Positions 22,779 to 23,906 of a DNA stretch of 64,000 bases are shown one piece after another (position 1 is the first letter of the stretch; each line of letters opens with the position of its first letter). The notes under the pieces were generated by a model. The model worked only from the letters and a program-made list of their open reading frames with translations, did not search any database and was not told the DNA's origin. A program made the translations under genes and the position numbers. The stretch lies in the NCBI RefSeq assembly GCF_003018235.1, contig NZ_CP027437.1; one strand, given 5' to 3'. The stretch comes from Escherichia coli. GTDB lineage: Bacteria; Pseudomonadota; Gammaproteobacteria; Enterobacterales; Enterobacteriaceae.

Positions 22779-23906
22779 ATGAAAGTTAAAGTACTGTCCC
22801 TCCTGGTCCCAGCTCTGCTGGTAGCAGGCGCAGCAAACGCTGCTGAAGTTTACAACAAAGACGGCAACAAATTAGATCTGTACGGTAAAGTAGACGGCCT
22901 GCACTATTTCTCTGACGACAAGTCTGTAGATGGCGACCAGACCTACATGCGTCTTGGCTTCAAAGGTGAAACTCAGGTTACTGACCAGCTGACCGGTTAC
23001 GGCCAGTGGGAATATCAGATCCAGGGCAACAGCGCTGAAAACGAAAACAACTCCTGGACTCGTGTGGCATTCGCAGGTCTGAAATTCCAGGATGTAGGTT
23101 CTTTCGACTACGGTCGTAACTACGGCGTTGTTTACGACGTAACTTCCTGGACCGACGTACTGCCAGAATTCGGTGGCGACACTTACGGTTCTGACAACTT
23201 CATGCAGCAGCGTGGTAACGGCTTCGCGACCTACCGTAACACTGACTTCTTCGGTCTGGTTGACGGCCTGAACTTTGCTGTTCAGTACCAGGGTAAAAAC
23301 GGTAGCGTAGATGGCGAAGGCATGACCAACAACGGTCGTGGTGCTCTGCGTCAGAACGGCGACGGCGTTGGCGGTTCTATCACTTATGATTACGAAGGCT
23401 TCGGTATCGGTGCTGCAGTTTCCAGCTCCAAACGTACTGATGATCAAAATGGTAGCTACATCAGCAATGGTGTAGCTCGTAACTACATCGGTACTGGCGA
23501 CCGTGCTGAAACCTACACTGGTGGTCTGAAATACGACGCTAACAACATCTACCTGGCTGCTCAGTACACCCAGACCTACAACGCAACTCGCGTAGGTTCC
23601 CTGGGTTGGGCGAACAAAGCACAGAACTTCGAAGCTGTTGCTCAGTACCAGTTCGACTTCGGTCTGCGTCCGTCCCTGGCTTACCTGCAGTCTAAAGGTA
23701 AAAACCTGGGTGTCATCAATGGTCGTAACTACGACGACGAAGATATCCTGAAATATGTTGATGTTGGTGCGACCTACTACTTCAACAAAAACATGTCCAC
23801 CTACGTTGACTACAAAATCAACCTGCTGGACGACAACCAGTTCACTCGTGACGCTGGTATCAACACTGATAACATCGTAGCTCTGGGTCTGGTTTACCAG
23901 TTCTAA
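22779..23906 (+). CDS. ompC: outer membrane porin OmpC (non-K-12 allele)
   Basis: 375-aa ORF with signal peptide [21 protein letters not shown] and C-terminal ALGLVYQF; conserved beta-barrel segments with divergent loop regions. Confidence 0.9.

Follow-up and report, generated by a model that had tools for sequence, protein, structure and literature searches.

The ompC gene carried on contig NZ_CP027437.1 of Escherichia coli assembly GCF_003018235.1 encodes a porin that departs from the K-12 sequence in several separate stretches. A reading made from the sequence alone had placed these stretches in surface loops and found them to fit diversifying selection, loops of OmpC being targets of phages and antibodies. 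This raises the question of how such an allele arose and what it changes in the protein. We examined the gene within a 64,000-nucleotide stretch of the contig, called here the window. Our data make it very probable that the gene is a functional, natural OmpC allele (loop types c7/b5/e) whose core remains as in K-12, and whose surface was reshaped by recombination of old loop cassettes. The allele, its loop types and its evolutionary pattern are all already known.

An intact ompC gene with K-12-like regulation

The 375-aa OmpC reading frame lies exactly where the sequence-only reading had put it (Table 1). The protein scores 759.6 bits against the NCBIfam model for porin OmpC (NF007841; cutoff 484) and falls below the cutoffs of the sister families (OmpF, 472 against 583; PhoE, 449.8 against 599). 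Likewise, Pfam PF00267 (Porin_1) covers it over its full length, profile positions 1-337 of 337, with 468.9 bits and E=1.5e-140. Open reading frames and K-12 annotation give the same gene order as in K-12, rcsD, micF, ompC, apbE, ada, in reversed orientation; micF lies upstream and divergent with rcsD beyond it, and apbE(ftp)-ada-alkB follow downstream. The C-terminus, VYQF, ends in the aromatic Phe of a beta-signal, and the signal peptide is invariant in all 16 ompC alleles aligned. The micF gene differs from that of K-12 at 1 of 94 bases. The K-12 micF-ompC intergenic region holds the ompC promoter and the OmpR-binding sites. Judged by its letters, the window counterpart is essentially as in K-12, which would be consistent with osmolarity-responsive expression through EnvZ/OmpR.

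All 1128 nucleotides of the gene are identical (100%) to ompC of strain ETEC1738. A paralogous porin (OmpF, PhoE, OmpN or a prophage porin), a sequencing artefact, or a faulty K-12 sequence in the earlier reading as the source of the differences is refuted by the OmpC score far above those of OmpF and PhoE, the K-12 context, the comparison with the real MG1655 sequence and the independent identical genome, and we regard it as practically out of the question.

Strain S163-2 has an IS1 insertion (L015, 2010..2707) in its micF/ompC regulatory region, on the stretch from rcsD to ompC, which might alter expression of ompC or micF in that strain.

Table 1. Features of the ompC locus and near-identical tracts, in window coordinates. 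Differences are relative to K-12 OmpC, residue numbers refer to the window protein, and all tract boundaries were picked after inspecting the data.
Feature	Coordinates	Strand	Description
rcsD	19368..22040	-	ORF list and K-12 annotation
micF small RNA gene	22352..22445	-	divergent from ompC; Rfam RF00033, 116.8 bits (gathering score 79)
micF-ompC divergent regulatory region	22446..22778	.	2 of 333 bases differ from K-12, only at 22597-22598
ompC CDS	22779..23906	+	ATG start, 375 codons plus stop, intact, C-terminal YQF (ORF list)
Signal peptide, codons 1-21	22779..22841	+	same as K-12; mature PDB chains align from A22
L1, codons 46-55	22914..22943	+	cluster 1, residues 47 and 49: N47D, D49S (SDDKSVD type); non-strand by DSSP
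L4, codons 172-195	23292..23363	+	cluster 2, residues 176-188: 4-aa deletion and five substitutions; short type c7
beta10 changes, codons 212 and 214	23412..23420	+	cluster 3, residues 212 and 214: G->A and I->V; DSSP strand 208-218
L5, codons 219-241	23433..23501	+	cluster 4, residues 222-239: 8-aa insertion and substitutions; long type b5
L7, codons 309-321	23703..23741	+	cluster 5, residues 311-317: 4-aa insertion (VING or GVIN, depending on the alignment) and G->N; type e
Putative terminator	23925..23944	+	hairpin then T run just 3' of the ompC stop; consensus pattern match only
apbE/ftp	24018..25073		downstream of ompC, then ada; ORF list and K-12 annotation
NY1601 near-identical tract	22598-23857		1,260 bp, 0 differences; flanks 0.7% upstream, 2.6% downstream
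A34 near-identical tract	22604-23857		1,254 bp, 1 difference; flanks 0.9% upstream, 3.4% downstream
O158:H23 near-identical tract	21553-23770		2,218 bp, 1 difference; flanks 1.0% upstream, 2.0% downstream
ETEC1738 near-identical tract	22578-27211		4,634 bp, 3 differences; flanks 0.9% upstream, 1.3% downstream

Differences from K-12 map to the outer surface

We aligned the window protein to K-12 OmpC (NP_416719.1), using the actual MG1655 ompC retrieved from NC_000913.3. Of 379 alignment columns, 348 are identical and 31 differ, in five clusters (Table 1). The alignment proves the earlier reading right about the K-12 sequence: the four divergent stretches it named, residues 46-53 (DDKSVDGD), 175-192, 221-244 and 311-322, are all found and all differ from K-12. 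No difference from K-12 occurs in the signal peptide, in L2, in the constriction loop L3, or in L6 and L8. At the DNA level the two genes share 92.8% identity overall, with divergence of 14-20% per 200 bp over 23200-23800 and of ~1-2% in the flanks.

The fold was modelled with AlphaFold2 from an alignment of 68 diverse porin representatives and 12 OmpC alleles, giving a mean pLDDT of 91.2 and a pTM of 0.87; with 121 near OmpC relatives as input, none below 85% identity, the mean pLDDT was 35.4 and the model unusable. The model superposes on the OmpC crystal and cryo-EM structures 2XE1, 2J1N, 2XE2 and 9WCB with target-normalised TM of 0.95-0.98 and rmsd of 1.3-2.0 A, and Foldseek returned OmpC and OmpK36 structures at target-normalised TM of 0.95-0.98. 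It has the full set of strands of a 16-stranded porin, and its L3, including PEFGGD, has the K-12 sequence. K-12 OmpC (2J1N) comes from the same locus and has the same fold, with nearly all strands identical to those of the window protein.

Loops were assigned from DSSP of the model together with crystal-based strand and loop labels (Beck et al. 2016, PMC5056734, S1 Fig). Of the 31 columns that differ, 29 belong to surface loops (L1, L4, L5 and L7) and two to strand beta10. In proportion, 29 of 112 columns differ in surface loops and 2 of 267 elsewhere (Fisher p=6.9e-15); for substitutions without indels the numbers are 13 of 96 and 2 of 267 (p=1e-6). The view that the differences sit in loops and not in barrel strands holds up, the sole strand changes being two conservative substitutions in beta10. 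These belong to a common dimorphism, with 35 of 121 OmpC sequences of the GAAV type and 45 of 121 of the GGAI type. The expectation that differences would map onto L4-L7 was right for L4, L5 and L7; L6 is unchanged, and L1 is changed as well. The L1 version found here, SDDKSVDGD, is the commonest type (40 of the 121 sequences).

DSSP alone labels residues 311-313 and 317 of L7, and residues 226-229 and 232-235 of L5, as strand. In porins, such residues belong to hairpins that prolong the strands beyond the membrane surface, and here too they would lie above the membrane and not span it. In the model, L5 is predicted to form a small beta-hairpin protrusion (226-229/232-235, pLDDT ~80), and L7 sits at the tip of an extended beta14-beta15 hairpin, with a DSSP turn at 314-315 between strands 296-313 and 316-334.

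Since its barrel, its L3 and its regulatory region are essentially those of K-12, the window OmpC should act as a normal osmoporin. The close match to K-12 extends to the trimer-forming core, the signal peptide and the micF/OmpR region; neither L2 nor the interface strands depart from K-12, a point in favour of normal trimerisation. By contrast with this core, the outward surface is altered by two substitutions in L1, the loss of four residues in L4, the gain of eight in L5 with its predicted hairpin, and the gain of four in L7. An adaptive permeability or antibiotic-resistance variant, comparable to the pore-lining clinical mutants (2XE2-2XE5) or to the L3 insertions of OmpK36, is a reading that the structural neighbours bring to mind, for such porin variants occur among them. 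However, L3 (residues 116-144) and the lumen strands are those of K-12, barring the two beta10 changes, and the changes all lie at the extracellular rim. We hold this reading to be extremely unlikely.

The allele and its loop types in other strains

Beck et al. 2016 (PMC5056734) classified 2,707 OmpC proteins of E. coli by their loops and described more than 220 OmpC proteins that differ mostly in L4, L5 and L7, in many combinations. All three variable loops of the window OmpC fit this scheme exactly: L4 c7, L5 b5 and L7 e are exact matches to types in their S2 Table. In the part of that work available to us, strain B088 is listed as c1/b5/e. Among 5,426 complete E. coli genomes, 566 carry a long b-family L5 and 56 carry the exact b5 DNA.

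The exact window protein is RefSeq WP_064225515.1, and at least four complete genomes encode it with zero amino-acid differences: ETEC1738 (pig, Belgium), NY1601 (chicken faeces, China), A34 (genet, Australia) and O158:H23 CFIAFB20140388 (Canada). At a threshold of at least 99% DNA identity, the allele class comprises 42 of the 5,426 complete genomes (~0.8%). Six near alleles were retrieved from this class. Four encode the same protein; in ST540 a single residue is changed (L300V), and in MEW a single codon has become a premature stop (W93*). Variation within the class is nearly all synonymous, and alleles with as many as 6 nucleotide differences still encode an unchanged protein.

The internal stop W93* makes MEW ompC (L021, 8001..9128), a member of the window allele class, a pseudogene, and Esc12 ompC (L010, 3001..4106) is a pseudogene by frameshift. 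Both illustrate recurrent porin loss alongside loop diversification.

Probable assembly and movement of the allele by recombination

In a codon alignment of 16 alleles, the window allele has L1, L2, L4 and L7 in common with two others (L003 and L004), and L5 alone sets it apart from these. Its L5 family is also found on other L1/L2 backgrounds. The gene has the make-up of a mosaic, with discrete recombined cassettes and a gene genealogy discordant with its flanks. Chen et al. (bioRxiv 10.1101/2021.09.21.461324) described mosaic evolution of ompC, ompF, ompA, lamB and fhuA, in which L1, L2, L4, L5 and L7 are hypervariable, the core is conserved, and the combinations are made by local recombination. 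The window locus is one more instance of this, with nothing of substance different, and the loop modularity reported by Beck et al. 2016 (PMC5056734) is the same pattern.

Comparison with the four strains that carry the identical protein reveals near-identical tracts set in diverged flanks (Table 1). The ETEC1738 tract is the longest, spanning the ompC promoter, ompC, apbE, ada, alkB and the start of yojI; its contrast with the flanks gives Fisher p=1e-13, a value that is optimistic because the boundaries were chosen post hoc. The same holds for p-values on any of the tracts, although the contrasts are large. We infer that the ETEC1738 tract is a recombination segment shared with the window. 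One and the same protein therefore sits in several backgrounds, with flank divergence of 0.7-3.4%, and tract ends often coincide with the ends of ompC, indicating that the allele moves between backgrounds by short recombination tracts.

These data suggest that short tracts of homologous recombination would have assembled the allele from pre-existing, anciently diverged loop cassettes, and that the same kind of tracts would carry it between strains; the allele would then not owe its origin to recent point mutation.

The sequence-only reading had taken the divergent loops to indicate a non-K-12 background. The flanks bear out that conclusion, being 97.9% identical to MG1655 over ~24.5 kb. Nor does the window come from any of the four strains that carry the identical protein, since their flanks diverge from it. 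Taken by itself, the ompC allele would say little about background, as recombination moves it from one background to another. The best flank match among complete genomes is 98.4-98.8% over 22-24 kb, a modest figure partly because the ompC neighbourhood is itself mosaic.

Over the apbE, ada, alkB and yojI genes (24000..27200), strains with identical OmpC diverge from the window, by 2-6% per 500 bp in and around ada. So polymorphic and mosaic a neighbourhood of ompC is unusual, and it is what hitch-hiking would be expected to produce beside a polymorphism that has long been maintained.

Synonymous divergence points to old loop segments

Substitution rates were estimated coarsely, by pooled pairwise Nei-Gojobori counts over 16 alleles; the counts ignore indel columns, yet these are the most striking differences between the window and K-12. 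Surface loops gave dN 0.115, dS 0.337 and dN/dS 0.34, and non-surface positions (strands, turns, L3 and signal peptide) gave dN 0.0074, dS 0.137 and dN/dS 0.05. The pooled dN/dS ranged over 0.30-0.38 in loops and 0.04-0.06 in the core, and along single-step edges of loop-haplotype spanning trees it was 0.14-0.57. We sought dN/dS above 1 in the loops of the 16 alleles, both in the pooled pairwise counts and on the single-step edges, and did not find it. Loop dN is ~15 times that of the core. Loop dS is also raised, at 0.34-0.49 versus 0.14 in the core, i.e. 2.5-3.5 times higher, and this shows that the ompC loop segments are older than the core.

The claim of diversifying selection is thus sustained only in part. 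Loop dN is strongly raised, as the claim would have it, but dN/dS is ~0.3, dS is raised too, and recombination is clear. Shuffling of old loop cassettes describes the pattern more accurately than positive selection on point mutations. Classical positive selection on new point mutations in the window lineage would fit the concentration of amino-acid differences in exposed loops, and the genome scans of Chen 2006 and Petersen 2007 named ompC as positively selected, according to the mosaic-evolution preprint (10.1101/2021.09.21.461324). The preprint itself argues that such signals stem from local recombination and not from spontaneous mutations. Furthermore, each loop sequence is a pre-existing, catalogued type (PMC5056734), the allele is exactly common to distant strains with breakpoints at gene ends, and the identity of the protein to WP_064225515.1 means that it has no lineage-unique loop substitutions. 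With loop dN/dS at ~0.3 and raised dS besides, we judge that new point mutations are very unlikely to have made the divergent loops. The locus shows cleanly that signals of diversifying selection in porins are largely recombinational reassortment of old cassettes, a point already in the literature.

A neutral account would have the loops under relaxed constraint, accumulating substitutions and in-frame indels that recombination spreads, without any selection for diversity. Loop dN/dS values well below 1, pooled as well as single-step, agree with it, as does the nearly all synonymous variation within the allele class. Relaxed constraint could account for part of the loop pattern. However, the 2.5- to 3.5-fold excess of loop dS implies a coalescence of loop segments deeper than this account predicts, unrelated backgrounds and hosts retain discrete families of cassettes, and in published experiments loop type decides recognition in CDI and by phages (PMC5056734; 10.1101/2021.09.21.461324). 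As a full explanation it seems to us unlikely. Given the receptor role of the loops, the diversity of cassettes that recombination shuffles is probably kept by frequency-dependent selection.

Possible receptor role of the altered loops

Several published observations tie the changed loops to recognition of the cell. Beck et al. 2016 (PMC5056734) found that L4 and L5 decide recognition by CdiA-EC536. In the preprint on mosaic porins (bioRxiv 10.1101/2021.09.21.461324), L1, L4 and L5 are reported to be phage-binding sites. PDB 9WCB shows the central tail fibre (gpJ) of phage A8 bound to OmpC of O157:H7 EDL933. The EDL933 protein is the closest solved structure to the window OmpC (741.8 bits). 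Its L1, L2, L3, L6, L7 and L8 are identical to those of the window, and its loop sequences match the types of EC869, c2/a6/e. In L4 the two differ at 2 residues, D and G in the window and S and E in EDL933. In L5, EDL933 has the short SPL type, whereas the window has the long b5 type. The two proteins show no differences besides these. Going by these sequences, a phage that reads L4 or L5 might tell EDL933 OmpC from the window OmpC.

A likely consequence of the cassette changes would be an altered receptor surface for OmpC-dependent phages, CdiA effectors, colicins and antibodies. Such a change could in turn feed frequency-dependent selection, under which many cassette combinations would persist in the species. 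Our data show directly the identity of the gene, the mapping of its differences to loops, its earlier cataloguing, the recombination signature and the dN/dS values; a selective agent, and an altered receptor specificity of the window OmpC, are what we infer from this chain.

A bolder version, which we put forward tentatively and consider doubtful, is that c7/b5/e is a rare recombinant surface, found in ~0.8% of complete genomes, chiefly those of animal-associated strains, that has a distinct receptor specificity and is spreading by ompC-sized tracts. If so, one result might be escape from phages, or from CdiA effectors, whose recognition depends on the short L5 of the K-12 or O157 protein. More generally, the type of OmpC loops that a strain carries serves in practice to predict its susceptibility to OmpC-dependent phages and to CDI, which is likewise already in the literature, and knowing that a strain carries c7/b5/e could aid prediction of phage host range or strain typing.

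Other features of the window and of related genomes

An island of ~10 kb (~47400..57726) adjoins a tRNA-Pro(GGG) gene (57650..57726, minus strand) and lies between a yejO-like autotransporter gene, which is a degraded pseudogene in SCU-111, and yejM. By homology to SCU-111 (98.4%), it encodes two integrases, an HTH regulator, an Icd-like protein and a RepA-family helicase, together with a PerC-family regulator and a fusion protein of ClpP-like prohead protease and major capsid. From this gene content, the island looks like a phage satellite, either a capsid-forming PICI or a P4-like element. The part of the window from 46000 to 64000 is covered to at least 80% in only 8 of the 5,426 complete genomes.

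Two intergenic sites carry repeats, the first with a copy number unlike that of K-12. Between eco and mqo (30487..30595) the window has one copy of a ~111-113 bp unit, of which K-12 has five tandem copies. In the rcsC-rcsB intergenic region (18483..18694) it has two copies of a ~98 bp repeat, as does K-12; ETEC1738, NY1601, O158:H23 and MEW are without ~114 bp of this region. Finally, atoSCDAEB lies between yfaP and rcsC in the window (~3000..15500), as in K-12 and ETEC1738, whereas ST540 (L022, 1..875) is without the ato operon, so that yfaP directly adjoins rcsC.
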